DNA of 64,000 bases, from positions 35,925-99,924 of the forward strand of contig JAHRWD010000087.1 of assembly GCA_019090315.1 (NCBI GenBank), in the 5' to 3' direction. Of the stretch, positions 4,542 to 26,302 are shown one piece after another. A program made the position numbers and the translations under genes. The stretch is from Pseudomonadales bacterium. Its GTDB lineage: Bacteria; Pseudomonadota; Gammaproteobacteria; Pseudomonadales; JAHRWD01. Under the pieces are notes generated by a model, which was given only the letters and a program-made list of their open reading frames with translations, was not told the DNA's origin and ran no database searches. Numbering within the stretch: the first letter of the stretch is position 1; each line of letters starts with the position of its first letter.

Positions 4542-4575
4542 CTCAAGTATTTACCAGTCGACAAACACCCGACAA

Positions 4576-5013: not shown

Positions 5014-5060
5014 ATTGTTTTCTCTTACCTGTTATTCGAAAACCAACGGCGGCAAATCCG

Positions 5061-6335
5061 TTAGCTCACCATCTGATTTAGTTCAAAAATCGGCATCATA
5101 ATGGCCAGTACAATCATCATCACCAGGCCACCCATCAGCAGGATTAATACCGGCTCAAGAATCGCCAAAAATGTGCTTATCCAGCTTTCCAGATCTCGCT
5201 CCTGATTCTCCGCCGCTTTAAATAGCATATCTCCAAGTGCACCGCTGGCTTCACCGCTGGCGATCAGATGCAGCGTCATAGGCGGGAAATAATCGGTTTT
5301 AGTAAGTGCATAGGAGAGGCTGGCACCCTCACGGATACGGCCTGAAGCTTCCTCTATGCTCGCCCGCATCGGGATATTGGATAACACTTCGGAGCTAATT
5401 CGCATCGCATCCAGCATCGGTACGCCACTGGCCAACAGGGTTGCCTGGGTACGGCAAAACACTGCGCAGTTGCTGATTTTCAACCACTGCCCTACTAACG
5501 GAATTTTAAGCATCAACGTATGCCATCGCTGTTTTGGTCCGGGCTTATTCAGAATCCAGCGAACCAGCGCACCCAGCAGTACCAATACGATCAACAGCAC
5601 AAAACCATACACCTGCAGGAAATCGCTGGCGGAGATCAGCACCCTGGTTAACAGGGGCAATTCCTGGTCGATCCCGGCAAACACTTCTATAACCTGGGGT
5701 ACCACGTAGGTCAACATCCCCACCACAACCATCACCGCTACGACCGTTAAAATGATGGGGTACAGCATGGCGTTGGAAACTGTCTGGCGTATTTTTTGAC
5801 CGTTTTCGGTGTAATCAGCCAACCGATCCAGTACCCCCGCCAGATCACCGGACTGCTCGCCGGCTCGTACTGTGGCGACATAATCCTGTTTGAACACTTT
5901 GGGGAAATTTGACATCGCCTGGGCCAAACTTTGGCCTTCCACAACCTGTGCGCGGACACTGGTCATCACCTTTTTGACGCGATCTTTTCCGCTCTGACTG
6001 ACCACCGTAGCGAGTGATTCATCAAGGGGTAGCGCAGCACGGGTAAGGGTCGCGAGCTGTCGTGTTATCAGTGCCAGCTCTTTAATGCTAATGGTGGGAT
6101 TAAACAGGTTTTTCGATTGAGCCTGTTGCTTTTTCTCGCTCTTATCCGCCGCTGGCTGAGTGGAATCCACCGATGTTTTAGTGCGGCGAACTTTACCCAG
6201 TACCTCATGCACCTCCAGCGGTGTCCAGCCTCGGTCCCGTAGCTGTTGGCGTACATGACGAGCGGTATCTCCCTCATCAACGCCCTTCTTTTGGCGTCCC
6301 GATGAATCTAGCGCTACGTAGTGATAAGCCGCCAT
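5061..6335 (-). CDS. gspF: Type II secretion inner-membrane platform protein F
   Basis: 424 aa with a duplicated T2SS-F architecture and three hydrophobic segments. Flanked by gspE and gspG. Confidence 0.9.
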   Translation of the reverse strand: MAAYHYVALDSSGRQKKGVDEGDTARHVRQQLRDRGWTPLEVHEVLGKVRRTKTSVDSTQPAADKSEKKQQAQSKNLFNPTISIKELALITRQLATLTRAALPLDESLATVVSQSGKDRVKKVMTSVRAQVVEGQSLAQAMSNFPKVFKQDYVATVRAGEQSGDLAGVLDRLADYTENGQKIRQTVSNAMLYPIILTVVAVMVVVGMLTYVVPQVIEVFAGIDQELPLLTRVLISASDFLQVYGFVLLIVLVLLGALVRWILNKPGPKQRWHTLMLKIPLVGQWLKISNCAVFCRTQATLLASGVPMLDAMRISSEVLSNIPMRASIEEASGRIREGASLSYALTKTDYFPPMTLHLIASGEASGALGDMLFKAAENQERDLESWISTFLAILEPVLILLMGGLVMMIVLAIMMPIFELNQMVS

Positions 6336-6339
6336 CTAA

Positions 6340-7818
6340 TCAACTTTCCCGGGTCACGCGTATTATTTCGTCAATCGTGGTATCTCCAGACAATACCGAT
6401 GCGGCACCGGAGGTTCGGATGCTTTGGGTTTGCTGTCTGGCAAGTTTTTCCAGCTCGATTTCACCCGCGCCGTTATGAATCGCTTCGCGCATGGTGTTAT
6501 CCACTTCAACCAGTTCAAAAATACCGATTCGGCCTGAAAAACCGGTTTGGTAGCAGTGCTCACAGCCGATAGCCCGGTACAGAGTCGGCGCTGGCACCGA
6601 GTCTGTCTCAAGCAGATCACAGCTAGCCTGATCAGCCTGATAGGGTTCTTTGCAGTGGATACAGAGTTTACGCACCAGCCGCTGCGCCAGCACGCCTAGC
6701 AGGCTCGACGCCAGCATAAAGGGCTCTACACCCATGTCACGAAGCCGGGTCACTGCACCCACGGCGGTATTGGTATGCAGGGTTGAAAGTACAAGGTGAC
6801 CGGTCAAACTGGCCTGTACCGCCACTTCAGCGGTTTCGACGTCCCGGATCTCACCAACCATTACGATATCCGGATCCTGCCGCAATATAGCCCGTAAGCC
6901 ACGGGCAAAATTCATATCAATTTTGGTGTTGACCGCGGTCTGGCTGACCCCATCAATAAAATATTCGACCGGATCCTCAACCGTCATAATGCTACGATCC
7001 GATTGATTCAGCAGCGATAATGCTGAATACAGGGTGGTGCTTTTACCCGAACCGGTTGGCCCGGTGACAAGAAAAACCCCATGGGGATGATGGATTATTT
7101 TGTCCAGACGTTGCCGATCGTGGTCACTCAAACCCAGTGTTTTGAGGTCTAGCCGGCCATTCTCTTTTTCAAGTAGACGCAATACCACCCGTTCGCCGTG
7201 GCCGCTGGGTAGTGTTGAAACCCGCACATCAACCGCGCGACCCGCCAGCCGGAGGGATATTCGCCCATCCTGGGGCAGTCGTTTCTCGGCAATATCAAGT
7301 TTTGCCATTACTTTAATACGGGAGACCACAGGAGAGACCAGCGCTTTTTTAGGTGCCAACATTTCCCGCAACATGCCATCAATGCGGAACCGTACCCGCA
7401 TTCGATTTTCAAATGGTTCGATATGAATATCAGAAGCACCCTGGCGAATCGCTTCACTTAGAATGGCGTTGATCAGGCGAATAATCGGGGCATCGTCATC
7501 GCTTTCCATCAGATCTTCCGGTTCCGGGATCAGCTCGCTGAGATCCTCGAAATCCTGGGTATCTGCGGAAAGACCATCCATCTCCTCCATAACTGCGGAG
7601 GAACCTCCTTCATACTGTTGCTGCAACTGGGCGTTAAAGCGATTGGAATCAACTTTTTCAACCCGCAGAGGAACACCCATAAAGCGCCGTAGTTCAATCA
7701 ACGATATCGGGTCCGAGACTTCCGACTGTATCACCTGCGCATAACCGTCCTGCTGGGCAACCACCAATACGCCGTTACGTTTGGAGAATGCGAAAGGAAT
7801 GTCAGATCGGTGGTTCAT
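6340..7818 (-). CDS. gspE: Type II secretion ATPase E
   Basis: Walker A motif GPTGSGKST. Tetracysteine motif CIHC...CEHC. The Asp/His box region is typical of GspE/PilB ATPases. Confidence 0.95.
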   Translation of the reverse strand: MNHRSDIPFAFSKRNGVLVVAQQDGYAQVIQSEVSDPISLIELRRFMGVPLRVEKVDSNRFNAQLQQQYEGGSSAVMEEMDGLSADTQDFEDLSELIPEPEDLMESDDDAPIIRLINAILSEAIRQGASDIHIEPFENRMRVRFRIDGMLREMLAPKKALVSPVVSRIKVMAKLDIAEKRLPQDGRISLRLAGRAVDVRVSTLPSGHGERVVLRLLEKENGRLDLKTLGLSDHDRQRLDKIIHHPHGVFLVTGPTGSGKSTTLYSALSLLNQSDRSIMTVEDPVEYFIDGVSQTAVNTKIDMNFARGLRAILRQDPDIVMVGEIRDVETAEVAVQASLTGHLVLSTLHTNTAVGAVTRLRDMGVEPFMLASSLLGVLAQRLVRKLCIHCKEPYQADQASCDLLETDSVPAPTLYRAIGCEHCYQTGFSGRIGIFELVEVDNTMREAIHNGAGEIELEKLARQQTQSIRTSGAASVLSGDTTIDEIIRVTRES

Positions 7819-9821
7819 TGCGCTGCGGATTCAGCTGTATCCAGCTCAGATTTGGGATCGGATTCTGGTACAGAATCACTATTTTCATCCTGCTGACGTC
7901 GCAATTTCTGATAATTAAGTTGCTTCCCTGATTCAGGGGTTATCAGCTCAAGTTCAGGCAACAGCGGATATTCAAATGCCGGATCTCGGGTAGGGTCTGA
8001 TTCTTTTCGTTCAAACTGGCGGTTGCGAATCTCCTGATAGTTCGATTGCATAATGGCCCTGCTACCCTCCTGATCCCGGATAATACTAGGACGGAAAAAC
8101 ACCATCATCATTCTCTTCGAAATCTCGGTGCTGGTGCTTCTGAACAGCGCACCGATATAGGGAATTTTGCTGAGGTAAGGTATACCGGATATCGATTCGG
8201 TGACTCGATCATCAATCAATCCACCCAGCGAAACAATTTCACCGTCATCAATCACTACCGTAGTGGTAATCAACCGCTTGTTGGTCACCAGGTCGGATGC
8301 ACCCTCAACCGAAGGGCTCAGGCTTGAAACCTCAAGACTGATCTCAAGCGTCACAACATCTCCTTCATTGATATGGGGCTTAATTTTCAGGGTTAGTCCA
8401 ACATCCTCTCGCTCAATCGTTTGAAAAGGGTTGGTAGAATCAGTACCGCTATCCGTATATGTACCCGTCACAAAGGGTACGTTTTTACCCACCACGATCT
8501 CAGCTTCATTGTTGTCCAGGGTAAAGAGTGAGGGGGTCGAGAGAATATTGGTATCCGCATCGGATTCCAGCGCTTTGAACATCAGTGCAAAATTTTCGCT
8601 AGCACCCAAAAACGTGAGCCCATCCCCGACAATCGGTAATGCTTCGGCTGCCCCGGCAAGTGCACCGCTAATCGAAGTACCGGTATTGGATGAACGACTA
8701 ACAAAGCTACCATGGTCACCAGTGCCCGCCATCTGAACCCCCAAATCCCTGGCTTTAGTGGCATCGAGGTCAACAATAATCGCCTCTACCATCACCTGAG
8801 CTCTACGGATATCGAGTTTTTCAATGATCGACAACAGCGCCTTATGTTGATCCGGACTGGCTGAAATAATCAGTGAATTGGTAGCTTCATCAGCCTGAAT
8901 ATTAGCGGGTGTTACGGTTACGCCTGCTTTTCTATTGCCCTGTTTTATCTTGGCATTGATCGTTTTATCCAGAATCGGTGCCATCTCTTTAGCGATTGCA
9001 TGATTCAAAAAAACCACTCGATCGTTGGTCTTCAGTTCTATCGGTTCATCAAGCTGCTGAATAATCGAACGCATCACCACTCGTTTTGCAGGGTCGCCAG
9101 ATAACAGCACGCTGTTGGTTCTTTCATCCGCCACCGCAAGCACCGCCGCGGCGCCTTTCTCTTTACCCGTCTGCAGGCTCTTCAGCAGTTGTACCACTTT
9201 GGTAGCGCTGGCTTTTTTAAGTTGAACCACTTCTATACTGCTATTAGTCGGCTTATCAATTGACTCAACGATACGCCCAAGCCGAGCAATATTGGCCGCG
9301 GAATCAGAGATGATCAGCGCATTTGCCGGGATATACGCCGCCATATGCCCTTCCTTTGGTACAAGCGGTCTGAGTACCGGTATTAACTTGGCCGCAGAAA
9401 CATGCTCAAGGCGCAGTACTTTTGTGATTTTTTGAGCGCCATCATAATTACTGGAATCGGTTTCGATCGGTATAGAGCTTTGTTTCGCCATATTTTGCGG
9501 AACAATTTTTACGATGCCATCGTTTTCGATAGCCGCATAACCATGCACCTCAAGGATCGATAAAAACACATCGTACAGTGCATCCCCATCCAGCGGGATA
9601 CTCGAAATAACCGTGACTTTGCCCTTCACCCGAGGATCAACCAGGAAGTTCTTTCCGGTCGCTTCACTGATGGTGGCGATCACCGTGCGAATCTCGGCAT
9701 CCACCAAATTGAGGGTGACAGTCTCAGCACTGGCAAAACGTCCGCCTAACATGCAGATCCAGACCATGGTCGCCAACAGGCAACTAAATTTGAATCTCTG
9801 GCGTATAACTCGGTGAATCAT
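7815..9821 (-). CDS. gspD: Type II secretion secretin D
   Basis: Signal peptide begins at MIHRVIRQRFKFSCLL...ASA-ETV. The C-terminal secretin motif is GIPYLSKIPYIGALFR. The start was trimmed from the ORF-track 9935 to the ATG at 9821 that precedes the signal peptide. Confidence 0.92.
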   Translation of the reverse strand: MIHRVIRQRFKFSCLLATMVWICMLGGRFASAETVTLNLVDAEIRTVIATISEATGKNFLVDPRVKGKVTVISSIPLDGDALYDVFLSILEVHGYAAIENDGIVKIVPQNMAKQSSIPIETDSSNYDGAQKITKVLRLEHVSAAKLIPVLRPLVPKEGHMAAYIPANALIISDSAANIARLGRIVESIDKPTNSSIEVVQLKKASATKVVQLLKSLQTGKEKGAAAVLAVADERTNSVLLSGDPAKRVVMRSIIQQLDEPIELKTNDRVVFLNHAIAKEMAPILDKTINAKIKQGNRKAGVTVTPANIQADEATNSLIISASPDQHKALLSIIEKLDIRRAQVMVEAIIVDLDATKARDLGVQMAGTGDHGSFVSRSSNTGTSISGALAGAAEALPIVGDGLTFLGASENFALMFKALESDADTNILSTPSLFTLDNNEAEIVVGKNVPFVTGTYTDSGTDSTNPFQTIEREDVGLTLKIKPHINEGDVVTLEISLEVSSLSPSVEGASDLVTNKRLITTTVVIDDGEIVSLGGLIDDRVTESISGIPYLSKIPYIGALFRSTSTEISKRMMMVFFRPSIIRDQEGSRAIMQSNYQEIRNRQFERKESDPTRDPAFEYPLLPELELITPESGKQLNYQKLRRQQDENSDSVPESDPKSELDTAESAAQ

Positions 9822-9935
9822 AATAAAGCCTTTCAACAACAGGTCGATGGTAACAAAGGTACCGTAATTCGGATTATATTGGGCAGGGAAAAAACCCCGA
9901 TACAGCTTAATTGTAGGCGCAAATCGTTCTTCCAC

Positions 9936-10790
9936 TTATGGGATCGGCAATGAAAGTATGATCGGTTGTCCACCACGCTCTATCTCAACCGTGAGTTCAC
10001 CGCTGGCCACTACATCATCCACCAGATTGTCATCCGCCATAAAATCATTAAGCGTCTTACCGTTAACAGAACGAACCAGATCACCCTCTCTGAGGCCAAC
10101 TCTCTGAAGCATTCTGCTATTTGCGCCACCGGCAAGTCGAAGACCACCGGCCTCATCATCTATAGACAGGCCATATTGGCCAAACGCCTTAACCGGGTCC
10201 TGATAGAAACTATCTTTACTGTTTTTTACCGCCTGCTGGGCAGTTGTCGCTTCCGGGTGATAGGTCAGCATATCTTTCGAGTTTTTCCCATCGCCGTTTT
10301 TACGTTTTTCCGGGAAGCTCAGGGTTTCCAGTCTGCCTGCTCTGCGCAGCAATACGTGATCCGCAAGAATATCCGCTACCACCACGTTCCCTGGCAACTC
10401 ATCTTCTTTTTTGTAGGAGCGCGCCGGTTTCCCCTTTTCTGCGATAAGTGCCCGAGTATCCTTATTGTCTGAACTGATAAAAATACCCCGTAGCTCAAAC
10501 TTAAGACGGGTCTCGGGTGCATCCACAACCGGTTTGGCGGCAACCGGATTTTTCACCAACTGATCATTTCCAAACAGATTGGCCGCAACGATTGTGCGAA
10601 CATTTCCATTCGGCTGTCGCGGTGATTTTTTACTAGTGGGTACCGCAACTATCGGTTGAAACTGACGCTGTGCTCGTTTTTCCGGCCCAGCCGGTTCAAG
10701 CCATTGCCAGATAAATGCACCCGCAAAATACGCAGCGACCACCAACGCCAACCAGACCAGGGAAAAAATCAGGTTCTTTTTAGTCAGCAT
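9936..10790 (-). CDS. gspC: Type II secretion protein C
   Basis: N-terminal TM (LIFSLVWLALVVAAYFAGAFIW). HR-like segment (LKFELRGIFISSDNKDTRALIAEKG...). C-terminal PDZ-like segment (GLREGDLVRSVNGKTLND). Sits directly upstream of gspD. Confidence 0.85.
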   Translation of the reverse strand: MLTKKNLIFSLVWLALVVAAYFAGAFIWQWLEPAGPEKRAQRQFQPIVAVPTSKKSPRQPNGNVRTIVAANLFGNDQLVKNPVAAKPVVDAPETRLKFELRGIFISSDNKDTRALIAEKGKPARSYKKEDELPGNVVVADILADHVLLRRAGRLETLSFPEKRKNGDGKNSKDMLTYHPEATTAQQAVKNSKDSFYQDPVKAFGQYGLSIDDEAGGLRLAGGANSRMLQRVGLREGDLVRSVNGKTLNDFMADDNLVDDVVASGELTVEIERGGQPIILSLPIP

Positions 10791-10924: not shown

Positions 10925-11668
10925 TCAGTAGATCTTTCGTTTAATTTCCATCACATTTCCAGCCCGATTGAGACGGCGGTTTGGCAACAGAATAAGGTTG
11001 CCCATCTCCTGCTTTACCTCAACACCTAGCCAGCCATCAGGCTGAAGCCTGATCACACTAATCGGCTCGCTCATTCCATGTTTGACAACATTCAGTACCA
11101 GCGTGCCCTCTGAAGCGGACAACAGGCCCGTCAGCTCAGGCATTTGAACCGTTTTCGTACCCGATGAAGTATAGCTTACGCGGCCACCCTTCCATATTAC
11201 AGCCCCGCCAGCATCGGAAAATTGAGTATCGTTCATGGAAACCGACAGGGATTCAACCACGATATCCTGATTGATGCGGATACCAAACTCGGCCAGCTGA
11301 CGATTCACCAGATCCTTACTGATCTTCCCGTTTACCTGAACCCTGCCGCTCGCTTCACCCTCGGCATCCGCTTTAATCCACAGATCGTGGTCAGCATCAT
11401 GAACATGAAGGACCAATCCGTACCCACCAAAGAGCCTACCAATTGGTGCAAGTTCCCAATTGACCGTGCTTTTCAATGACCCATCGGTAATGGTTGATTG
11501 CCCGCTCCATACAGAACCCTCAACCTCACCGATCATTTCTGCTAGTTTTGGAGGCAACTGCGAGCGCAGCCTTTCAAATGCAATTGATGCAGGGAAATTG
11601 GCCAGCAGACCGGCAGAAAAAGCCACCGCGACCGAAAAAGCGCATATCAGCCAGTGCTTTCTATCCAT
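10925..11668 (-). CDS. gspN: Type II secretion protein N-like
   Basis: N-terminal TM, then a pattern typical of the GspN family (GEVEGSVWSGQSTI...VNWELAPIGRLFGGYGL). Starts at the internal ATG MDRKHW; the ORF-track start at 11704 is a TTG. The position upstream of gspC is atypical. Confidence 0.55.
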   Translation of the reverse strand: MDRKHWLICAFSVAVAFSAGLLANFPASIAFERLRSQLPPKLAEMIGEVEGSVWSGQSTITDGSLKSTVNWELAPIGRLFGGYGLVLHVHDADHDLWIKADAEGEASGRVQVNGKISKDLVNRQLAEFGIRINQDIVVESLSVSMNDTQFSDAGGAVIWKGGRVSYTSSGTKTVQMPELTGLLSASEGTLVLNVVKHGMSEPISVIRLQPDGWLGVEVKQEMGNLILLPNRRLNRAGNVMEIKRKIY

Positions 11669-11832
11669 GTTTACAGCTATTAAAATTTGGTTTTTCCATA
11701 CCAAAGAGTATACAACGAGAACCCCGTTGTTGCGTATCCTCCGTCGCTCAATCGGTCATGGAATACCCTAGCCGCCACATTCATCGCTGGAACAACCCTG
11801 ATATAAATATCTATCGGTACTAAGTCTGAGCG

Positions 11833-12288: not shown

Positions 12289-12378
12289 CAAGCGACTGTG
12301 GTGTCAATCACCCCAATAAATAAAATGAAGTTATTCGATCGACCACACTTTATTGTCCCGTACCATCGCATTTAACGC

Positions 12379-14158: not shown

Positions 14159-14187
14159 CAAGCTAAAAGGTAATACCTTTTAGCTTG
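14159..14187. other. Perfect 13-bp-stem palindrome (caagctaaaaggt-aat-accttttagcttg)
   Basis: Read directly. It lies between the DUF35 gene stop (14276) and the glpK start (14027). It could be a terminator hairpin or an operator. Confidence 0.6.
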
Positions 14188-14275
14188 GCTGCATCTACTG
14201 CATTCTTAAATTCATGATTACAGAACAGGCCTTCTCGCAAGGAACCTCCCACAAATCATTCATCCGTCCCTCTAT

Positions 14276-14797: not shown

Positions 14798-14830
14798 ATT
14801 TATTCTCCTTTTATTATTTGCTTCGACCGA

Positions 14831-16335: not shown

Positions 16336-17135
16336 GGGGTCAGACTCGATTGATTTAACCCTTCCGGTAGCTTTCCGACTTTCGATCCCCTCCCCTTAGC
16401 CTTGGGGACACGGGTCGCTTTAATTTTCGCTCGATTTCATCCTTAAAGTGGCTGCTCCCCAGCACCCAGGCTTTATTGGTTGATTCCCTTATTTCCGTTA
16501 ACGTTTTCTCAGCAATACGAGCTTTGAACAAGGCTCTGTACGCACTCTGTCGTTCTTCCGGGGTTTTGCCCAGTTTTATGTATTCTGGATGAGGTACCAC
16601 CAGGGGATCTGGTTCTCCCACCGCATTGTGGCGATAACTCGACCAGGGGTATTCAGAGGGGTGATCTACCATATCCTCTGCACGAACCGGGTTTAACTCA
16701 ATATATCGATAACAGGTCAGCAGGTAGCGTTCCGAGTCAATCAATGTGGCTTTGTAACGGCCTTCCCAGAGAGTGCCGGTACGTTGGTAGGTATGATTAA
16801 AATACTGGACATAATAACGCCCGAGCATTTGAAGCGATTTGCTGATCCCATCTTCGGTACGGGGAGTCATCAGCAGATGAACATGATTTGTCATCAGTAC
16901 GTAGGCATGAAGGTCGCACTGGTGTTTTTCGCAAGCTTGTTCGAGTTTTTCCAGGTAAAAGCGATAATCCTCTTCTCCATAGAAAATAGGTTCGCGGTTA
17001 TTGCCTCGCACGATTACATGCTGAGGCTGACCGGGAATGACAAAACGGGGGAGACGAGCCATGGCTTAATCTTCGAAATGAGAGACGCGGGTAGCGTACT
17101 CGACGGGACGGATAAAATCAATCGAGTCTGACCCC
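16336..17135 (-). mobile_element. RAYT unit: REP-associated tyrosine transposase gene flanked by a perfect 19-bp inverted repeat
   Basis: Left arm ggggtcagactcgattgat (16336-16354). Right arm atcaatcgagtctgacccc (17117-17135). The two are exact reverse complements and bracket the IS200/Y1-like ORF. Confidence 0.85.
16355..17062 (-). CDS. REP-associated tyrosine transposase (IS200/IS605 Y1-like, RAYT)
   Basis: 235 aa. The N-terminus MARLPRFVIPGQPQHVIVRGNNREPIF and the HUH-type motif LMTNHVHLLMTP match the COG1943/RAYT family. Confidence 0.88.
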   Translation of the reverse strand: MARLPRFVIPGQPQHVIVRGNNREPIFYGEEDYRFYLEKLEQACEKHQCDLHAYVLMTNHVHLLMTPRTEDGISKSLQMLGRYYVQYFNHTYQRTGTLWEGRYKATLIDSERYLLTCYRYIELNPVRAEDMVDHPSEYPWSSYRHNAVGEPDPLVVPHPEYIKLGKTPEERQSAYRALFKARIAEKTLTEIRESTNKAWVLGSSHFKDEIERKLKRPVSPRLRGGDRKSESYRKG

Positions 17136-17627
17136 ATTGACTCCACATAAACCTTGACTTTCAGCCATGTCTATCCAGTTAGCAGTCATATAGTTTGAAT
17201 ATTCTCCTTTCTGAAGATCCACCAATGCACAAATTGCATCCATATAGTTATTCGATGCGGCTCCCTCTAGATATTGAATAGATAGAGAGGGTGATCGAAC
17301 ATATCTGAAGCTCCCCTCCAACATAAAACTGGCAACTAAGTATTGCGCCTCTGAAAACCCACCATCAGCGCTTTTTAAGTACCATCTTTTCGATTGAATA
17401 TAGTCTTTGCCTATGCCTTTACCCCAGAAGAAAGCCTCGCCTAACAAATATTGTGCTTCGTGATCTCCTTCTTTCGAAGCTAATATAATACCTCCAATCT
17501 TTGAATAATCACCGCTTCGAAAAAGAAATTTTGCGATCTCAGCCTCATCTGCCCCTCCTCCTAGTGAGAATTGACTAAAACACAACACAGAGAGCAATAC
17601 ATAAAGAAGAATCATCTTATTGGTCAT
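17118..17627 (-). CDS. Sel1-repeat periplasmic protein, candidate immunity protein for the upstream RHS toxin
   Basis: Signal peptide MTNKMILLYVLLSVLCFSQFSLG. Sel1-like repeats are present (EAQYLLGEAFFWGKGIGKDYIQSKRWYLKSADGGFSEAQYLVA). Its ATG lies inside the last codons of the toxin gene (11-nt overlap, 17617-17627). Confidence 0.7.
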   Translation of the reverse strand: MTNKMILLYVLLSVLCFSQFSLGGGADEAEIAKFLFRSGDYSKIGGIILASKEGDHEAQYLLGEAFFWGKGIGKDYIQSKRWYLKSADGGFSEAQYLVASFMLEGSFRYVRSPSLSIQYLEGAASNNYMDAICALVDLQKGEYSNYMTANWIDMAESQGLCGVNGVRLD

Positions 17628-20600
17628 AGTTGTATTTCTCCAGAATTGGCGTATGCATACCTTCATACTTATTCTTGAAAAGGGGTGTAACAACAAAAGG
17701 TTTCGTTACTAAAACTGGGATATTGTAATTTGGAAACCTAGGGTCCTGCACTTGAGTTCCACCATAAGGACGTTGTTGGTTGTCCCAAGAGTACGCATTG
17801 CCATATCCCTCATTACTAGGGGCATATACTTCTATATCTAATGGCTCAGCCCAGAAACCATCACTGTTTTGATACGTAACTGAGCAAGTATAGTAACAGT
17901 GCTTTCTGCCCATTTTTGCCCCTTTGGGAATTCTTTCCAGATTATATTGTTCATAACTACAGGCTTTTTGACTGACAGATTCGCATATAGCAGCGAACGA
18001 CTTAGCTGAAGCTTCCTCATCCCCATGCCCAGGCATAGAATCATTCAAAATATAACTAAACGCTCCAGTTACCGCCCCATTCCCAAATTTACCCCCACTC
18101 AAAACTGATGCAGTACCACCAACAACGGAAGACACAATTACTCCCCCTGGCGAAGGCCCCTGCCCGGCGGGGCCCGTCAAATTCATATTTCCAGCCATGG
18201 CTGTAAACCCTGCCGCAGCAAACCCATGCCCAAACTTCCCACCCTGCAATTCGGCCATTATACCGCCAGTCATACCGTGGGCAGCCACTCGCTGCCACGG
18301 GTGTAAGCCCTCAATACCCCCTATCACATAAAACGCGGCCGAACTTACACCTGCAATCGCAGCCGAACGATATGCAGCCGTAAAACTCCCTGTCTGAGCA
18401 TATGTCATATTCATACTAAATTGGGCGTTAAAGCCAATTGAACATGGACCACAGTACGCAGTACTCACAGCGGTTCCAACAATTTGCGCAAATTGCGCTA
18501 ACGCTGGATTTTTACCCAGATATTTATACAACGGCTTCTGTAATTTCGCATCAATACGTGATGCCACCCACAACGAAAAGAAATACCCACTAGGATCCGT
18601 ATAAGCCAGCGGATTATTGATCACGTATGTATACCGGTTATAACTCTGGCTATTACCCGGCGCCTGTATAAACGGATCCGCCTGCAGTACCCGGCCTAAT
18701 GAGGGGTCATAGATCCGCCCGTTCATATGGATGAGGCCCATTTCGTCGAGCTGTTCGTGGCCGGTATAACCCCTTGTGGTGACTCTGTTCTCCGCGATAA
18801 AGTCGGTGGCGATTTCGGTCGCATCCAGTACATTCCAGTTACTGGCGCGGCGGCGTTTTCCCCAGGCATCAAAGCTGAGGTCTGTTGTTGCACCACTGCT
18901 ATCAACGATCACATCAATCGAACCCTGCTGATCTTTGAAGATGTATTGAATTTCACCGGCGGAGCCGTTCCCGGCACTGGTGATGATCATGGCACCGAGG
19001 TTACTACGATATTTGACGCTCTCGTTGGGGCGGTCTATTTTTTCAACATTACCCAGATACAGGGTGGTGGTTTGGCCACCAACCGCATCATCCACCCGTT
19101 TGTAGCGACTACGGCTTGCACCGTAGTAAAAGGTGGTTGTGTGATCATTGCCTTTTTTGGCTTCGACCAATTTATCGAAGCTGTTGTAGGAAAGTGAACG
19201 GCCGTTACCGGCTGTCTGGTTGCCGTTGGCATCGTAGCTGTAGGTGGTACCTCCGGCATTGGTAACGGCATGGGGGCCGGCATTATTAGCACCGTAGGTA
19301 TAGTCGCCAATATCAGATTTATTGGTGATATTGCCACCCGCGTCATAATCAACGGTGGTGGTCTTGTAGATACTGCTTTCCGACCCTGGCGCGTAGGTCC
19401 GTACTTCTTCAAGGCGATTCAGCTCATCATAGTCGAACGCCTCAAACATGTTTTTGGTACCACTGTGGTCCCTTCTTGTTTTCAAGTTACCGATCTCATC
19501 GTAGCTGAATAATAGATCCTGTACGTCACCGTTATCGGTATTGATAGAGAGGATGCGACCGGTATCGGGCTGATAAGCACGAGTGGTGATCATGCCATTA
19601 CCGGCACGAAATTCGGTGATCTGGCCCGCAGCATTAACGGCCATCACCTCATGAATGGTTTTGCCGCTAATAACGTCCCAGCTGCGCTCCAGATAGCCAT
19701 AGTCATTGTATTTATTGCGAATTTCCCGACCATCGGCACCGGTTTTTGAGGCTATTTGATTGGTGCCGGGCTTAAAGGTGGAGCTGGCCAGATATGGAAT
19801 CCCATCAATGGCGGTGGTTGAGCCATTCGGCCGGCCGTATTGATCGTAGACAATCTCGTTTTTGTAGCCATCCAGTGTGTTTTCAACGTAGTCCAGTTGA
19901 CCCAGGCCATTGGCAGCAGAGTCGTATACCCACACACTGTCTTCATCTGCACTGATCCGGGTTTTCATGCGGCCAAGAACATCGTAGGTCATGGTGGTGA
20001 CCTGTCCTTTGGCATTGGTTTGGGTAACCAGCTCGCCCAGGGCATTGTATGTATATTTCCAATGGCCTTTATCCGGGTCATCCATGATGGTTTTTCGACC
20101 GAGAAGATCGTAGACCATTTCGATGATCTGGCCATCGGCACCTGTTACCTTTATGAGGTTGCCAGCGGCATCATAGGTATTAGTGAGCACTCCAAGCTTC
20201 GCATCGATTACGCGGACGGTCTCACCCAGTGCATTAGTAATCTCTGTTCTGGTTTGCCCCAGTGCGTTGGTTGTGGTGGTTTCGTAGCCGTTGTAGCTAA
20301 TGCTGGAGGCACTCTCATCAGGCAGTGTGACGCGAATAACTCGACCAAACGGATCATGCTGGGTTTTTGTCCAGTATATGGTGCTCGCACCTGCGACGTA
20401 GGGGCTGGAAATTTTGGCAACCCTGCCGACTGCATCGTAGTAGGTGTCGGACTGGATGGTTTCACCGTTAAACCCCAGCTTGCTTTTGCGAACCTCTCGC
20501 CCCAGCACATCAAAATACTGAATGCTTTTTTGACCTGTGCTGCTGGTTTGTATGCTGAGATAAACAGCCTGAAGCGGACAGGTTTCCACAGCGTTTTCGC

Positions 20601-23600
20601 AAAGCAGGTGTTGGTTACTTACGCTGACGCCAATGTTACTGGTGGTACTGGTAGTACGGCCCCACGCATCGTAACGAGTACTGATCTGGTTACCATTGAT
20701 CAGATTGGCCTCTGTGGTACGGCCAAACGTATCACGATCGGTAACGGTTTCCAGCACGTGGCCCATACTGTTGTAGCGCTCTTTTACGAAACGGTGGTCG
20801 TCATCATCCATTCGCACCCCGCTTGTTCGGGTAGTGATATCAGTGCTGGTATCCATGGCACTCTGGTCACCGCTTACCGTAGTACTTGTACGCTGGCCGT
20901 AAACATCATGCCCATACTCGGTAGTCAGTGTTCGACCAATACCTCCATCGGGTTCTATGATCTCTTTATTGAGAATACGTGTGATGGAATCGTAATCGAA
21001 TTTCGCTGTGCGTGGGATGGTAGTTTGACCAGGGCGTTCATGTTGTACGGTTGCTTTCTCCAGGCGACCAAGATGCCATATACCATTAATTCCAGTTGAA
21101 ACATGGTTGACGTACTCATTATTCGTAGTCGTACTGCTCACCGGGGAACCCTGGGCATCTCGTATTTCAACCTTTATCATACTCAGATTGGCGTAGTTCT
21201 TATCCTCGCCATCATCGTAGGTGTTGGTCGTCGTTACACTACCCAGTAGTTCACCACTAACAGAGTCATAGCTCGTTTCTACGCTGTTGGCGATGTAGGG
21301 ATAAATCGCTTCACCAGCGGTGCTATTTTGTTGCCATTCGTTATCCGCAACGCTCAGCAGGGTATCGGTATCAAGATGGTATTTAACGGTTTGCAGGGGC
21401 ATACCGGCGAAGGGGAAATCTTGCCGATAACGGGTATCCACCAGCACACCGGACTGTGGGTCGTAGGTGGTGAGGTATTCAAAACCCAGTGATCCCCTGC
21501 CACCGGCCTGTATTCGCAGCCCCTGATAGAAGTACTCCATTTCTGCCATATGATCCGAATCGGTTTCGGTTGGCGCACTGCTGCTAACCCGTGAAACCAC
21601 GTACATTGGGCTGTTAAGGTCAAATACCGGCGAGCCATTGCCCCAATCAAATTCACTGGCACCATGGCCAGGGGTATAGATCAGATCCTGATCATTGGTG
21701 AGGGTAGTGTAGTCAATTTCAGTTTTGGCACCCAAACCGTTGGTGATGCGATGGATTAGATCCTGGGGGGTGCGGTCAAAGCGATTGAAGTAGATAGTAT
21801 AGTTATTTTGATCGATATTTGCCGCGAGGAGGTCAGCATAGCTGTCGCCATCGATATCTAGAAAAGCCATCGTATGGTCGGGATTGATGAGGCGCCAATC
21901 ACCAATACTTGGACCAACTAGCATTGCCGCCCCATAACCACGACCGTTCCAATAACGCACGCAAAGAGCCTGCTGGTCGTTATAGTTGCAGATTTGCACC
22001 AGATCAGACATTCGATCGCCGTTTAAATCAGCGAACTGCATTTTTTTTGGTTTGCTGATCTTACCCACACTCATCGCATCCTCAAAGGAGCTACCTAAAC
22101 CATAGGGAGTTCCATTGTTGAGTCGATAAAACCATTCATCACCGATCTTGCTAAAAATATCGGTCAGGCCATCACTATTAATATCAATCAGCCGAAAGTT
22201 CTCAGCATTCTCATCCACCGGGAGAAGAGCTGCGATTTCAGTTTCCGCTGAGGACATATGGGTAAAGCGTGTGGGGTAGGTCGAATCATCGGTTGGATCA
22301 ACCGTCAGCAATATCCATTTTTTTGAATAGGTAGTTTCAATCAGCTCGGTGCGTATTACCTTTAAAAGAAGATCGACCCGGCCATCACCATTCAGATCCA
22401 TCGGTGGGTGTTTTTTAAAATCAGCCTTTATATTGCCTCCTGCACCCTCCACGGTAATAAGCTCCAGCTTTTGTTCCTTACCATAAGAATAGGGTTGATC
22501 GGCGCTCCAGCTACTGTTTTTCTTCAGATACCGAATACGAATATCGTTGTCACCGGAGTGATACAACATATCTACAAGGCCATCACCATTTAGATCGCTG
22601 AAGATTGCTTTTGAACTGCTGGTTGAGGGGACCCCTATATCGATAGCGCTGCTAGAGAGCGTCGCCCCGTTAGACAGGTGTACCTTCCAACGGCTACCGG
22701 TGGCATAAACCAGATCCTGATAGCCGTCATTGTTGTAGTCAATCACGTGCCATGCTTCGCGGGCTTGGCTGAATGCTCTTACGCTAAAACTGGATTTTAC
22801 CAACGAGGTGCCGTCCGAGTAGGAAAGCCTGAAGCGATATTCGTCACCATTGTGATAAAGCCATAACCAGTCCTGCTTGCCATCGCCGTTAACATCAATG
22901 GTCTGCCCACCAAGGTAGGATTTCTGCACACCAAATTCACCTGTTACTTGATCACCCTGAAGTACGCGGTCGGGCTCATGCCAGTTAAATTTGGTTGCCG
23001 GAAGGCAGTTCGTGTCACTCACACACTCCTGTACGCTACGCAGTAAGTTTCGCTGAGTGCCTTTGCTAAGCCCGTAACGCAGGTTGTATTGGCGAAATAG
23101 ATCGCTACCTTCACGCACCTCAATTGAGTCTAGCCGCCTACTGACAGTGTTTTTGGAACCTAGCCCATAGAAAATATTGGTATCTGATCGGGTATTGCTG
23201 TACTTAAATTTAATTGAGGCGTTAGGGGAGTCAGTGCTGTCGTGACCGGTATATTTCACCTGATCGATACGAAAATCACCATCGGTATCTGCTAGGTATT
23301 GGTACAGCATGTAGTTTCCGGCGCTGTCGGAAAATTTATTTTGGGCCCAGTAATTTACGATACTGCCAACACTCAGGCTGGATACTACCGCGGAGTCAGT
23401 GCTGTTACCGTATTCTGAAATGGAACCGTCTTTACGCCATACTTTAAAATAGAGCTTACCGGTTGCGGAGGTAACGGATCTCACCCGCAGGGATTGGTCA
23501 ATCTCGGTTCGATATTCATTGCCCGCCTCACCATATTCATTACTACCCGCTACCTTAACCAGGCGTGCACCATCCAGACAGAAGCGATCTTCATCATCAA

Positions 23601-25284
23601 GCATTACGGTACGATTGCGTAGGTCCGCCTCATAGCTTTGCCTACAACGAGAGATACTGGATAGACCACCCACAGACCAACCCACACCGGCGTAACCATT
23701 ACCGGCACCGCTGTTGTAGTTAAGGCTCATCTGCGGCGTGACGCCACCCAGCCCGGGCAGGTCTGCAATGGCAATGGCGTACCCGGCAGCACCCTGTTGG
23801 TCGACACGGAAACTGCCACCGGTACTACCGACTTCACTGGAAGAAACTGGGCCTACATCATTTATTCCGTTAACTTCCCCATCAACGAGCACCGACACTG
23901 CGTCATCGGTATAGCACTGTTCTGTTTTAGGCGAATCCCACTGATTGATCCACCAACAATGTTTAATTCTATAGTGGTACTCACCATCAGGTTGATTATT
24001 GATCATATGAGAGGTTGCGCTTGAGCTTTTTAATCGCACATGCCACTCGCCCGAACCGACACGCTCCTGTAATTCAAAATACCTCAAATCACTACCAAAA
24101 ACGGCAAAAACGGCCCCATTCGGTATCACCCAGGAGATGTTATATGCGCCACCTTGAACAACATCGGCGGGCACACTGATAGAAAAATGATCACCTGCGA
24201 TGGGTGAATCGGTGACAGTAAGGTTCTGCGATTCCACCAGCACCGAGGCGGCTGGGCTAGGCGCACTGCAAAGACCATTTACATCACAAACTCGCACCCG
24301 ATAGTAATAAATACCGTTGCTGCGCCCCGTTGCTGTGTACTTCCGACTAGAATCATTCTGCCGTATCGTCCATGTGCCATCGATTCCGTTGCGTTCTTCA
24401 AGTTGGTACATCATATTAGCCGTAGGAGAAACGGACCACGAAAGTTCATAGGATGGGCTATTGCTTATGGCAGGGGCTTGAATGCCACTGAGAGGAGAAG
24501 GTGCTCGCAAATCTATGACAGTGTGCTCTGAGATTTCGGTGCAGTTCATCACGAAATTGTCTTCCAGGCTTGCAGGATACCCACAAGCTAATAAACGGTA
24601 GCGGTAATAGCCTTTAATGGACTGATCGGATATGTTGTAAGTTTGAGCTTGGTATTCGCTGGTGTAACCCTCAAACAAACTAGTCCATTCACCCGATTCG
24701 GTTTCCACCTGCAACAAATAGTTAATGCGTGGTCGCGAAGTCCAGCCCAAGTTATAGTTTCCGTCGGTAGTGGTACTTTGGTGGCTCTTTTCCAGGCTAT
24801 TAATATTACGTAACACCCCGTTTTCCGGGGCAGGCGTGACTGGACCGTCGGCGGGATCGGCTACCGTTACATATATACCAGAACCATTGTAAGGGCATGG
24901 ATCGTAAAGGAGACATCCGTGTAGCCTATATTCATATATACCGGGCCCCTTACCTGTAACCGAATAACTAGATGTTGGAGGTACACCCTGAACCAATGTT
25001 ACCCAACTGCCTGAACTATTACGCGTTTGCAAAGACACGTACAAGCCAGCACCTGCCCAGCTCAATGTATAGCTGCCATTGTTATTCACATCTGCAGTTG
25101 CAATATGTCGCTTGGAGTTTGGCGTTGGGTTTGCGGTAAACTCGTCGTAGCTCAAATAATTAATTGTGGGCAGATCAGAAGGCACCGTCATGGCAACAGC
25201 CTGAGCGGTATACAAAAATGAGGTAAGGAAGCAGAAGTAATAAAAAGCGAGGGGGATTTGGCGGCGTGCGAAATGACGAATCAT
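17617..25284 (-). CDS. Secreted SpvB/FG-GAP/RHS-repeat polymorphic toxin (Tc-toxin BC-like fusion), 2555 aa
   Basis: - Sec-type signal peptide (FYYFCFLTSFLYTAQAVA).
- Four modules of about 95 aa, each ending G-x-Y-x-Y-R-x-x-x-C.
- SpvB-type segment (GGSFRVDQQGAAGYAIAIADLPGLGGVTPQMSLNYNSG).
- Seven FG-GAP/VCBS-like DxNGDGxxD loops.
- Long YD/RHS repeat run.
- RHS core ending GRIYDPSLGRVLQADP...NPLAYTDPSGY.
- A C-terminal region of about 320 aa follows. Confidence 0.9.
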   Translation of the reverse strand: MIRHFARRQIPLAFYYFCFLTSFLYTAQAVAMTVPSDLPTINYLSYDEFTANPTPNSKRHIATADVNNNGSYTLSWAGAGLYVSLQTRNSSGSWVTLVQGVPPTSSYSVTGKGPGIYEYRLHGCLLYDPCPYNGSGIYVTVADPADGPVTPAPENGVLRNINSLEKSHQSTTTDGNYNLGWTSRPRINYLLQVETESGEWTSLFEGYTSEYQAQTYNISDQSIKGYYRYRLLACGYPASLEDNFVMNCTEISEHTVIDLRAPSPLSGIQAPAISNSPSYELSWSVSPTANMMYQLEERNGIDGTWTIRQNDSSRKYTATGRSNGIYYYRVRVCDVNGLCSAPSPAASVLVESQNLTVTDSPIAGDHFSISVPADVVQGGAYNISWVIPNGAVFAVFGSDLRYFELQERVGSGEWHVRLKSSSATSHMINNQPDGEYHYRIKHCWWINQWDSPKTEQCYTDDAVSVLVDGEVNGINDVGPVSSSEVGSTGGSFRVDQQGAAGYAIAIADLPGLGGVTPQMSLNYNSGAGNGYAGVGWSVGGLSSISRCRQSYEADLRNRTVMLDDEDRFCLDGARLVKVAGSNEYGEAGNEYRTEIDQSLRVRSVTSATGKLYFKVWRKDGSISEYGNSTDSAVVSSLSVGSIVNYWAQNKFSDSAGNYMLYQYLADTDGDFRIDQVKYTGHDSTDSPNASIKFKYSNTRSDTNIFYGLGSKNTVSRRLDSIEVREGSDLFRQYNLRYGLSKGTQRNLLRSVQECVSDTNCLPATKFNWHEPDRVLQGDQVTGEFGVQKSYLGGQTIDVNGDGKQDWLWLYHNGDEYRFRLSYSDGTSLVKSSFSVRAFSQAREAWHVIDYNNDGYQDLVYATGSRWKVHLSNGATLSSSAIDIGVPSTSSSKAIFSDLNGDGLVDMLYHSGDNDIRIRYLKKNSSWSADQPYSYGKEQKLELITVEGAGGNIKADFKKHPPMDLNGDGRVDLLLKVIRTELIETTYSKKWILLTVDPTDDSTYPTRFTHMSSAETEIAALLPVDENAENFRLIDINSDGLTDIFSKIGDEWFYRLNNGTPYGLGSSFEDAMSVGKISKPKKMQFADLNGDRMSDLVQICNYNDQQALCVRYWNGRGYGAAMLVGPSIGDWRLINPDHTMAFLDIDGDSYADLLAANIDQNNYTIYFNRFDRTPQDLIHRITNGLGAKTEIDYTTLTNDQDLIYTPGHGASEFDWGNGSPVFDLNSPMYVVSRVSSSAPTETDSDHMAEMEYFYQGLRIQAGGRGSLGFEYLTTYDPQSGVLVDTRYRQDFPFAGMPLQTVKYHLDTDTLLSVADNEWQQNSTAGEAIYPYIANSVETSYDSVSGELLGSVTTTNTYDDGEDKNYANLSMIKVEIRDAQGSPVSSTTTNNEYVNHVSTGINGIWHLGRLEKATVQHERPGQTTIPRTAKFDYDSITRILNKEIIEPDGGIGRTLTTEYGHDVYGQRTSTTVSGDQSAMDTSTDITTRTSGVRMDDDDHRFVKERYNSMGHVLETVTDRDTFGRTTEANLINGNQISTRYDAWGRTTSTTSNIGVSVSNQHLLCENAVETCPLQAVYLSIQTSSTGQKSIQYFDVLGREVRKSKLGFNGETIQSDTYYDAVGRVAKISSPYVAGASTIYWTKTQHDPFGRVIRVTLPDESASSISYNGYETTTTNALGQTRTEITNALGETVRVIDAKLGVLTNTYDAAGNLIKVTGADGQIIEMVYDLLGRKTIMDDPDKGHWKYTYNALGELVTQTNAKGQVTTMTYDVLGRMKTRISADEDSVWVYDSAANGLGQLDYVENTLDGYKNEIVYDQYGRPNGSTTAIDGIPYLASSTFKPGTNQIASKTGADGREIRNKYNDYGYLERSWDVISGKTIHEVMAVNAAGQITEFRAGNGMITTRAYQPDTGRILSINTDNGDVQDLLFSYDEIGNLKTRRDHSGTKNMFEAFDYDELNRLEEVRTYAPGSESSIYKTTTVDYDAGGNITNKSDIGDYTYGANNAGPHAVTNAGGTTYSYDANGNQTAGNGRSLSYNSFDKLVEAKKGNDHTTTFYYGASRSRYKRVDDAVGGQTTTLYLGNVEKIDRPNESVKYRSNLGAMIITSAGNGSAGEIQYIFKDQQGSIDVIVDSSGATTDLSFDAWGKRRRASNWNVLDATEIATDFIAENRVTTRGYTGHEQLDEMGLIHMNGRIYDPSLGRVLQADPFIQAPGNSQSYNRYTYVINNPLAYTDPSGYFFSLWVASRIDAKLQKPLYKYLGKNPALAQFAQIVGTAVSTAYCGPCSIGFNAQFSMNMTYAQTGSFTAAYRSAAIAGVSSAAFYVIGGIEGLHPWQRVAAHGMTGGIMAELQGGKFGHGFAAAGFTAMAGNMNLTGPAGQGPSPGGVIVSSVVGGTASVLSGGKFGNGAVTGAFSYILNDSMPGHGDEEASAKSFAAICESVSQKACSYEQYNLERIPKGAKMGRKHCYYTCSVTYQNSDGFWAEPLDIEVYAPSNEGYGNAYSWDNQQRPYGGTQVQDPRFPNYNIPVLVTKPFVVTPLFKNKYEGMHTPILEKYNYDQ

Positions 25285-25645
25285 GTACTTACTTCCCTTA
25301 ACAATCCTTGTAACCGCTTATACCTTCTAGGGTATTCGCAGCAGAAAAAGCATAGGGCGAACTTCGTGTTCACCAGCCAGATAAAAACCTGGCGAGCTGA
25401 AGTCTAAAAAACTTTCGTCGAATCTGTCAAGGGTCATTACTAGCAACGCTGATTTTTAAAGTTCAACCGTTTCACGGCTACGGAATTTCTAGCAATACTT
25501 TTTCGCGCTACACATTGCTTACAATTGCCCGATCGCTGAATTTTATTTACGGCCGCTTGACCATAGTGGTACTCTAAAAAACGTACTGGCTTTCTACAAC
25601 CCGCAAAACAGCCCTCAAAATAGCCGCCAAATATAATGGAGTGTA

Positions 25646-26302
25646 ATGATGTTACAAGGATCAGTTTCAGCAACATCCAGGTACATAATGTTAGCGGCGT
25701 TGGCGCTCTGTTTCGGACTGTTTTTATCGTATCTATTGCGTGATATAGGTAAGTCAGCCCCGCCACCCATAGCGCTCCCCTCGTCTTCAACTGGTCAATC
25801 CATTTCTGATAGCAGACCACGGCTGGATCAAAACACCGCCTCGGAAATCGCCACTACCGGCCCTGCCCCAGATCCAGCACCCAGTCCAGTACAAACGGTT
25901 GTTGAGACCAATTCGCTACGTTTGACTCTGGAGGGAGTGTTTTTAGCTTCTGACCCGAAAAAAGCCACCGCGATGATTCGTAATTCCGACGGTCTCAGCA
26001 AGCTGTATTACGTTGGTGAAGTGCTAGCCGAGCAAGTGGTGCTTGATGCGATCAACCGAAATTATGTAGTGGTATTACAGGATGGCAAGACGATACGACT
26101 CGGCATCAATACAAACCGTACTGGTGACCCCAGCCCGGCGAATAACAACTCACTGCCGACGGCCTATCAAGCTGCTACCGCTCGGGACTCGGGAAACAAT
26201 GAGGAATACAGCGACGACACATCACGCTTAAGCAAACAGCAGGTGATGAACAGATTGCAGACCCTTCGTCAGGACAATTTCGGTAGAACCCCATCGGATT
26301 GA
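25646..26302 (+). CDS. GspC-like protein with TM plus HR domain only (no PDZ)
   Basis: GGAG lies 5 nt upstream of the ATG, and there is an N-terminal TM (IMLAALALCFGLFLSYLL). The segment LRLTLEGVFLASDPKKATAMIRNSDGLSKLYYVGEVLAEQVVLDAI..VVVLQDGKTIRL aligns by eye with the HR region of the in-window GspC (LKFELRGIFISSDNKDTRALIAEKGKPARSYKKEDELPGNVVVADI..VLLRRAGRLETL). Confidence 0.6.
   Translation: MMLQGSVSATSRYIMLAALALCFGLFLSYLLRDIGKSAPPPIALPSSSTGQSISDSRPRLDQNTASEIATTGPAPDPAPSPVQTVVETNSLRLTLEGVFLASDPKKATAMIRNSDGLSKLYYVGEVLAEQVVLDAINRNYVVVLQDGKTIRLGINTNRTGDPSPANNNSLPTAYQAATARDSGNNEEYSDDTSRLSKQQVMNRLQTLRQDNFGRTPSD

Follow-up and report, generated by a model that had tools for sequence, protein, structure and literature searches.

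Results

A 64,000-nucleotide stretch of contig JAHRWD010000087.1 from a Pseudomonadales bacterium (the window, below) carries a complete operon for a type II secretion system (T2SS) that includes a gspC gene of its own, and, outside that operon, a second gene of the gspC family that stands head to head with the gene for a giant polymorphic toxin. The product of the second gene, which we refer to as short GspC, is securely a member of the GspC family with an HR fold and, as judged from its sequence, has the single-helix architecture of XcpP and XpsC rather than an architecture with a PDZ domain. The same head-to-head pairing with a toxin gene is found in all close relatives and recurs on one distant contig. 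We propose, with the considerations on the two sides about evenly balanced, that short GspC serves as an alternative or additional GspC that would couple the neighboring toxin to the T2SS. The coordinates of the features discussed are collected in Table 1; loci used for comparison are designated by L numbers.

Architecture of Short GspC

The initial annotation of this region described an open reading frame (ORF) of 218 codons whose start lies 362 nucleotides from that of the toxin gene on the other strand, and it took the product to be a GspC paralogue with one transmembrane (TM) helix and an HR domain but without a PDZ domain. Both the ORF and its spacing were confirmed, and this description of the product is borne out by sequence and by fold. 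A search with hidden Markov models (HMMs) gave a match to the Pfam family T2SSC (PF11356) over residues 15–152 with a score of 55.2 bits (cut-off 27; E = 8.7e-15) and none to the PilP family, and no PDZ family of Pfam matched even at E ≤ 1. In a BLASTP comparison short GspC was 26% identical over 112 residues (E = 8e-6) to the GspC encoded by the operon in the window, the aligned segment being exactly the HR region. The GspC equivalog models of NCBIfam match only weakly (25.1 against a cut-off of 101.6 for TIGR01713 and 35.7 against 150 for NF041515), and we therefore regard short GspC as a diverged member of the family.

An AlphaFold2 model, built on 24 aligned sequences, consists of an N-terminal TM helix, a Pro/Ser-rich linker (disordered over residues 39–89), a β domain, a second linker (disordered over residues 158–194), and a C-terminal helix (Table 1). 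The TM helix bears a motif, GL[FY]LSY, that is conserved in the alignment of the clade. When the Protein Data Bank was searched with Foldseek, the best match to the model was the HR domain of enterotoxigenic Escherichia coli (ETEC) GspC bound to the N0-N1 domains of GspD (3oss_C; TM-score 0.86, root-mean-square deviation [rmsd] 1.7, 67 columns). Further matches were to the HR domain of PulC in its complex with PulD (6hcg_e; TM-score 0.79), Legionella LspC, PilP, and 7oio, and to the HR domain of Dickeya GspB/OutB (4wfw; TM-score 0.60, rmsd 1.7). The HR/PilP fold on which the initial annotation depended is thus present in the model. In ETEC GspC, residues A133 and V141 are buried in the interface with GspD, and mutagenesis showed them to be required for binding (PMC3169554). 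Their equivalents in short GspC by HMM alignment, F99 and M110, are hydrophobic and invariant in the clade, which would be consistent with docking on a secretin but does not prove it.

We also noted that short GspC has glutamate at position 96 (nucleotides 25931–25933) and arginine at position 112 (25979–25981), that the clade has E at the former and R or K at the latter, and that other GspC-like proteins mostly have R, H, or K at position 96 and E or A at position 112. This pattern bears an unverified resemblance to a swapped charge pair between strands β1 and β2; we rejected it as a sign of a new binding specificity and made no use of it as evidence.

The C-terminal region had been described only as lacking a PDZ-like domain. 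That absence holds, but the region is not featureless: it contains a conserved helix that had been overlooked, with the motif KQ[QE]VMNRLQxLRxxN in the alignment of the clade. Twenty-two short proteins from outside the group of close relatives align with short GspC through this helix. In a set of 26 short GspC-like proteins, no member departs from L204 or R208, and R203 and L207 are kept by 90% or more. A coiled-coil or amphipathic character was considered and rejected; because the hydrophobic moment of the helix is unremarkable (0.61, compared with 0.71 ± 0.36 in shuffled sequences), we call it simply short and conserved. The second periplasmic region of GspC, which is thought to be the site of substrate docking, is a PDZ domain in EpsC and OutC and a single helix in XcpP and XpsC (PMC11981180, PMC12369372). 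On the strength of the conserved helix and of this published description we assign short GspC, by sequence, to the single-helix (XcpP/XpsC-type) architecture, the tie running via uncharacterized short GspCs in xcp-like gene arrangements; the HR-only architecture of the initial annotation is accordingly abandoned.

Relatives of Short GspC

An exhaustive profile search covering 1.84 billion representatives identified only three close relatives of short GspC, after which scores fall from 295 to 67 bits. Below this drop lies a mixture of GspCs of about 290–330 residues, a subset of which have a Pfam PDZ domain, and short proteins of about 200–240 residues. The genes for short proteins of this kind stand divergent from gspE-F-G-...-M in L022, L023, L029, L030, L031, and L032, and in L024 the gene is located immediately upstream of gspD. 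In five of the xcp-like clusters (L022, L023, L029, L030, and L031), each divergent from gspE–M, the single-helix gspC gene is directly followed by a gene for a Peptidase_C93 (LapG/BTLCP-like) protein.

The clade of short GspC lacks the LFG and PxT motifs that most GspCs keep ahead of the HR domain: of 179 other GspC-like proteins, 158 have a threonine at the PxT position, and the consensus of the short family includes LFG. The absence of these motifs, the strong divergence of the clade from other GspCs, and the tight linkage to the toxin gene described below would all fit a protein that works apart from secretin docking, either as a periplasmic tether or chaperone by which the N-terminal Fn3-like repeats of the toxin are retained at the inner membrane, or as the partner of some other N0- or STN-type domain. 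We consider this very unlikely, however, in that the characterized domains of the HR/PilP fold that the model matches (those of GspC, PilP, and GspB/OutB) all dock on secretin N0 (PMC3169554, PMC9239104), the hydrophobic character of the interface positions has been kept, and the toxin itself has no N0 or STN domain detectable with Pfam.

The short gspC gene is a real gene under purifying selection. A GGAG sequence is located 6 nucleotides upstream of its ATG start codon. Ratios of nonsynonymous to synonymous substitution (dN/dS; Nei–Gojobori method), calculated with L027, the closest sequence for which DNA is available (83% amino acid identity), were 0.09 for the HR domain, 0.22 for the TM region, 0.25 for the C-terminus, and 0.39 and 0.54 for the first and second linkers. 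Likewise, over the three lineages of the clade the HR domain is 50–71% identical and the linkers are as little as 23–30% identical. In all, five homologues and one orthologue in a GTDB metagenome-assembled genome (MAG) were recovered. The low ratio for the HR domain, together with the conserved motifs, rules out a decaying pseudogene or a spurious ORF. A horizontally acquired island was likewise rejected, there being no signal in base composition around short gspC: the GC content stays within 0.46–0.52 and leaves this range only at the region for the toxin C-terminus and the candidate immunity gene, where it falls to 0.42.

The Toxin and Its Candidate Immunity Gene

The toxin is composed, in order, of a Sec signal peptide, four to five Fn3-like repeats, SpvB, an FG-GAP propeller, TcdB_midN, an RHS shell, and a variable C-terminal toxin domain. 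Sec signal peptides are present on all of its orthologues. The C-terminal 470 or so residues, which follow a cleavage-type motif, YTDPSG[YF], are wholly different among the four orthologues compared (window, 17000–18900; L001, 1256–2300; L004, 679–1600; L010, 756–2000). The small genes located 3' of the toxin genes differ as well, encoding a Sel1-repeat protein of 192 residues, proteins of 154 and 141 residues, and a TPR protein of 208 residues. A variable C-terminal domain accompanied by a small 3' gene is typical of the swapping of toxin/immunity cassettes, and the Sel1-repeat gene of the window is probably the immunity gene. From the domain order and from the variability of the C-terminal domain and downstream genes we conclude that the protein is a polymorphic toxin of the Rhs kind whose scaffold is a fused TcB/TcC-like cocoon. 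An alignment of the toxin N-terminus yielded only two short and uninformative loci (L025 and L026) in a scan of metagenomes and only one unrelated protein in a homologue search.

The ORFs of the toxin and of short GspC are separated by 361 nucleotides. Within this divergent intergenic region a sequence scan revealed a promoter-like element for the toxin gene, TTGACA-18-TAGACT, at 25430..25401 on the minus strand, and a CTTGACA element was also seen by inspection in the intergenic regions of L001 and L004.

Pairing of Short gspC with the Toxin Gene

The sources of all close relatives of short GspC are a single group of Pseudomonadales metagenome bins and one GTDB MAG. The gene is head to head with a toxin gene in all three of the close lineages (the window and L027; L001–L003; L004–L007 and L010), and the toxin orthologues of these lineages are 53–56% identical. 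The other side of short gspC is variable: a gene for a flavin-containing monooxygenase (FMO)-like protein follows directly in the window and L001, and in L004 and L010 it is preceded by 4.3 kb of small ORFs with signal peptides. Because the close lineages are related to each other, with a flanking FMO that is 91–92% identical, the conserved gene order counts for little when taken alone.

The six small ORFs between short gspC and the FMO gene (10881–14427 in L010; also 10505–13899 in L004) are of 106–125 codons. Their products each have a signal peptide and at least two cysteines, are faintly similar to one another, and have no Pfam match; they could be periplasmic immunity-like proteins or secreted proteins.

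A distant instance of the pairing, which carries more weight, was found in L028, a contig from JGI, whose short GspC (P0056) is 27% identical to that of the window and whose toxin is 30% identical over 2615 residues, has the same architecture, and carries a signal peptide. The gene order is toxin, orf145, short gspC, orf124, and gspD, the last encoding a secretin with N0 and Secretin_N domains. P0056 is not specifically closer to the clade of short GspC than to other GspCs, which leaves two possibilities for the pairing: great age or two separate origins. The ORFs that flank short gspC in L028 (9547–9984 and 10822–11196; 145 and 124 codons) encode proteins with signal peptides and no Pfam match, which by eye share the pattern LNxC...QC...QL...LY.

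The presence of gspD at the homologous position in L028 raises the alternative, also offered in the initial annotation, that short GspC acts in another secretin system; it would then be what is left of a toxin-linked gspC–gspD module and would work not with the neighboring operon but with a second secretin, or a second T2SS, whose genes lie beyond the window. That short gspC immediately precedes gspD in L024, that short GspC is the sole GspC of the cluster in L022, L023, and L029–L032 (where the secretin is encoded elsewhere), and that the operon in the window already has a GspC all speak for it. We nonetheless think it rather unlikely, as no second secretin or T2SS was found in the window (whose ORFs were annotated up to about 36.8 kb and from about 48.6 kb on) and as the nearest T2SS genes in both the window and L001 are those of the gspN–M operon just past the toxin gene. 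Such an origin would, moreover, still be compatible with a role in export of the toxin.

A further arrangement that bears on a link between toxin and T2SS is found on the Janthinobacterium lividum plasmid NZ_CP139977 (L037, 2847–20675). There, a T2SS-like cluster, comprising genes for T2SSM_b, a TPR-STN-secretin protein fused to cohesin, three pseudopilins, GspF, GspE, and two unknown products, lies directly 5' of the gene for a 2291-residue FG-GAP/SpvB/Rhs toxin with a signal peptide, which in turn is followed by a small gene. We take the placement of the toxin gene after the cluster as a hint.

The T2SS Operon and the Position of Short gspC

The T2SS operon of the window is complete and is located on the minus strand, from 11704 down to 292, in the order gspN, C, D, E, F, G, H, I, J, K, L, and M. 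The PDZ matches of its GspC are weak and below the Pfam cut-off (E = 0.003), and its TIGR01713 score of 80.8 also falls short of 101.6. Short gspC is located 14.8 kb from gspC and gspD and is divergent from the toxin gene rather than from gspE; it does not, therefore, occupy the usual genomic position of a gspC gene. Upstream of the operon, and in the same orientation, are the toxin gene, the Sel1-repeat gene, a Y1_Tnp gene, and a 4.6-kb insert, and short gspC is divergent from this entire toxin-to-T2SS array. In L001 nothing but the Y1_Tnp gene, the immunity gene, and the toxin gene separates short gspC from gspN. The term "orphan," which the initial annotation used for short gspC, applies only loosely, given that the toxin gene it faces is directly 5' of, and co-oriented with, gspN–M in both the window and L001.

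If the toxin module were taken away, short gspC would stand divergent from gspN–M. Short GspC might accordingly be a general scaffold of the T2SS that serves all substrates, with the toxin gene merely lying between short gspC and the operon. GspB/OutB offers a model for such a scaffold: like short GspC it has a TM helix joined by a linker to an HR domain, with a short extension at the C-terminus; secretin N0 is its binding partner, and its gene stands away from gspC (PMC9239104). The model of short GspC can also be superposed on the HR domain of OutB. This seems distinctly improbable to us. The fold is nearer to the HR domains of GspC than to that of OutB, and Pfam gave no T2SSB match at E ≤ 1 as against the 55 bits for T2SSC. 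The direct neighbors of short gspC are the genes for the toxin and the FMO-like monooxygenase and not gspA or gspS. Nor is a second HR gene a normal feature of gspN-C-D clusters: none was present within 10 kb of 11 canonical gspC–gspD loci, 6 of them with gspN upstream (L011–L021, from other Gammaproteobacteria MAGs, most of them labeled Pseudomonadales). Finally, a general scaffold would leave the renewed pairing with a toxin gene in L028 unexplained.

A Proposed Role for Short GspC

Very probably, short GspC works within a T2SS, where it would span the distance from the inner membrane to the secretin base. Its N-terminal helix would serve as the inner-membrane anchor, and the long disordered linker of 55 residues would allow the HR β domain to reach the N0 ring of the secretin and dock on it. 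The likely docking partner is the GspD of the window, which is encoded some 16 kb away in the same neighborhood. The C-terminal helix would replace the PDZ domain in the role of the variable module facing the substrate or the assembly platform. As short gspC shares a divergent promoter region with the gene for a Sec-exported SpvB/TcB/Rhs toxin of 280 kDa, short GspC could act as an alternative or additional GspC that couples this toxin to the T2SS. We infer the coupling from the conserved and recurrent pairing of the two genes, the Sec signal of the toxin, the location of the toxin gene at the head of the operon, and the precedent of the bacteriocin Bcn-A (see below); on our reading of these genomic data, the coupling has about an even chance of being correct. 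A further version is more doubtful, namely that GspC isoforms are interchangeable in some T2SSs and that short GspC is a cargo-dedicated adaptor of this kind, which ancestrally had its own secretin (as in L028) and which would enable a type II machine to export the Sec-dependent TcB/TcC-Rhs cocoon toxin.

Several considerations weigh against coupling of the toxin to the T2SS by short GspC. The operon already carries its own GspC, and a search of the literature on orphan and paralogous GspCs returned no described case of two GspCs acting on one T2SS. Short GspC is far under the cut-offs of the GspC equivalog models and has neither the LFG nor the PxT motif. The gene order common to the three close lineages could be inherited rather than selected, and the distant recurrence is seen on a single contig (L028) and on one side only, with a GspC that has no special affinity to the clade. 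The co-occurrence with the toxin implied by the initial annotation was found in every close relative and in L028, but no HR-domain gene was present within 12–14 kb of the genes for five related toxins that carry signal peptides and are encoded on plasmids or chromids (in Shewanella, Pseudoalteromonas, Glaciecola, Vibrio, and Janthinobacterium); toxins of this kind are thus not generally in need of a dedicated GspC. In width, a folded cocoon of the TcB/TcC type roughly equals or exceeds the channel of a secretin. Lastly, classical Tc toxins, which have no signal peptide, leave the cell by lysis that depends on a type X secretion system (PMC10847048).

How Sec-dependent, stand-alone TcB/TcC-Rhs toxins exit from diderm cells is poorly understood, a single Rhs-family bacteriocin having so far been tied to a T2SS (PMC7259588), and the selection of substrates by the variable second periplasmic region of GspC is an open question (PMC12369372, PMC11981180). 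With a PDZ-type GspC and a single-helix GspC beside one complete T2SS, the locus described here offers a compact genetic test of both questions: a requirement for short GspC by the toxin only would point to specificity set by the GspC isoform as well as to a T2SS route for Rhs cocoons. The coupling, if real, would thus be informative on T2SS specificity and on Rhs toxin export alike. The more doubtful version, with an interchangeable, cargo-dedicated isoform, would represent a new export route for giant polymorphic toxins in which substrate specificity is set by a swap of GspC. Literature searches returned no published description of a second single-helix GspC locked to a giant Sec-dependent Rhs toxin. 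What appears to be new is the arrangement of a single-helix GspC, a T2SS with its own GspC, and a giant Rhs toxin; the family assignment itself is ordinary.

Surroundings of the Locus

A Y1_Tnp gene lies between gspN and the immunity gene both in the window and at 297–1154 of L001; the two are only 37% identical, far under the level of the flanking housekeeping genes. The 4.6-kb block between gspN and the Y1_Tnp gene (11833–16075), which is not found at that place in L001, contains an unannotated plus-strand ORF for a multi-TM protein of 151 residues (orf151) and three minus-strand metabolic genes, which encode an FGGY sugar kinase, a ChsH2-like OB protein, and a thiolase-like protein. Farther away on the minus strand are a gene for a 1242-residue signaling protein with MASE1, CHASE, PAS, GGDEF, and EAL domains (48637–52365) and a cluster (52888–63986) resembling those for biosynthesis of aryl-polyene lipids, with genes for two ketosynthases, a ketoreductase, an ApeP-like dehydratase, DUF3261, a FAD halogenase-like protein, an MMPL transporter, a LolA-like protein, and an acyltransferase.

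Table 1. Features of the window around short gspC and the toxin gene (pLDDT, predicted local distance difference test)
Feature	Coordinates	Strand	Basis
gspE, F, G, H, I, J, K, L, M	292..7818	-	Pfam; gspG and gspI ORFs
gspD, secretin with type_II_gspD_N0 domain	7815..9935	-	TIGR02517, 538.8 bits
Canonical gspC, 284 aa, HR domain and weak PDZ match	9936..10790	-	T2SSC, 112.7 bits
gspN, first gene of the operon	10925..11704	-	Pfam T2SSN
Y1_Tnp (IS200/RAYT-like), between toxin module and T2SS operon	16355..17062	-	Pfam; same position in L001
Sel1-repeat protein, candidate immunity protein, directly 3' of toxin gene	17118..17696	-	Pfam Sel1; gene here differs at each orthologous locus
Polymorphic toxin, 2555 aa, ~280 kDa	17617..25284	-	Pfam; termini and orthologue comparison
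Divergent intergenic region	25285..25645	.	Between toxin gene and short gspC
short gspC, 218 aa	25646..26302	+	ORF with ATG start; Pfam T2SSC (E = 8.7e-15); homologues; dN/dS
N-terminal TM helix, residues ~7–35, hydrophobic stretch IMLAALALCFGLFLSYLL	25664..25750	+	AlphaFold2 helix, pLDDT 83–87
Pro/Ser-rich disordered linker 1, residues ~36–89	25751..25912	+	pLDDT <50; dN/dS 0.39
HR β domain, seven-stranded, residues ~90–155	25913..26110	+	pLDDT ~91
Disordered linker 2, residues ~156–196, conserved LPxA[YF] motif	26111..26233	+	pLDDT <50; alignment
Conserved C-terminal helix, residues 197–211, KQQVMNRLQTLRQDN	26234..26278	+	AlphaFold2 helix, block-mean pLDDT 58–77

Comparison with Known Systems

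PilP, a protein of type IV pilus machines, is a lipoprotein whose gene is part of pilMNOPQ. It shares with short GspC the β-sandwich fold that binds secretin N0 (PMC3169554). We rejected membership of short GspC in this family: there is no match to the Pfam PilP family, the protein has a TM helix and no lipobox, and no pil genes were present among the annotated ORFs of the window (those up to about 36.8 kb and from about 48.6 kb on). GspB/OutB of Dickeya dadantii is likewise bitopic and of about 220 residues, with a TM helix, a linker, an HR fold, and a short C-terminal extension, and is encoded outside the core operon. It demonstrates that one T2SS can use two HR proteins, both of which bind secretin N0, and its gene has gspA or the pilotin gene gspS close by (PMC9239104). 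Short GspC differs in its lack of a T2SSB match, in its lower fold similarity (0.60 as compared with 0.86 for GspC), and in having neither gspA nor gspS as a neighbor, and on these counts it was not assigned to the GspB family.

With the PDZ-type GspCs (EpsC, OutC, PulC, and ETEC GspC) short GspC has the TM anchor and the HR domain in common, and its HR domain superposes on those of ETEC GspC and PulC; it differs from them in having no PDZ domain, in being under the cut-offs of TIGR01713 and NF041515, and in that its gene does not adjoin gspD. Closest in design are XcpP of Pseudomonas aeruginosa and XpsC/XpsN of Xanthomonas, proteins of about 200–240 residues with the same order of parts: TM helix, linker, HR domain, linker, and a single C-terminal helix (PMC11981180, PMC12369372); their second periplasmic region is a helix or coiled coil in place of a PDZ domain. 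This likeness was drawn from descriptions of these proteins and not from their sequences, the RLxxLR helix of short GspC being one that it has in common with uncharacterized short GspCs. Short GspC departs from the XcpP/XpsC type in that it is not the sole GspC of its neighborhood, the operon encoding one with a weak PDZ-like C-terminus; in that the divergent partner of its gene is a toxin gene rather than gspE; and in that it lacks LFG and PxT and is set off from all other GspCs by a steep drop in score.

The nearest counterpart to the proposed coupling is found in Xanthomonas perforans, where the Rhs-family bacteriocin Bcn-A depends for its activity on XpsD, the secretin of the T2SS (PMC7259588). 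At 1398 residues Bcn-A is smaller than the toxin of the window (2555 residues), no dedicated extra GspC has been described for it, and the proposed T2SS link of the window toxin is, in contrast to that of Bcn-A, a purely genomic one. Even so, Bcn-A is also a large Rhs-family toxin with an immunity gene, and its release depends on a T2SS whose GspC is of the single-helix type (PMC7259588, PMC11981180).

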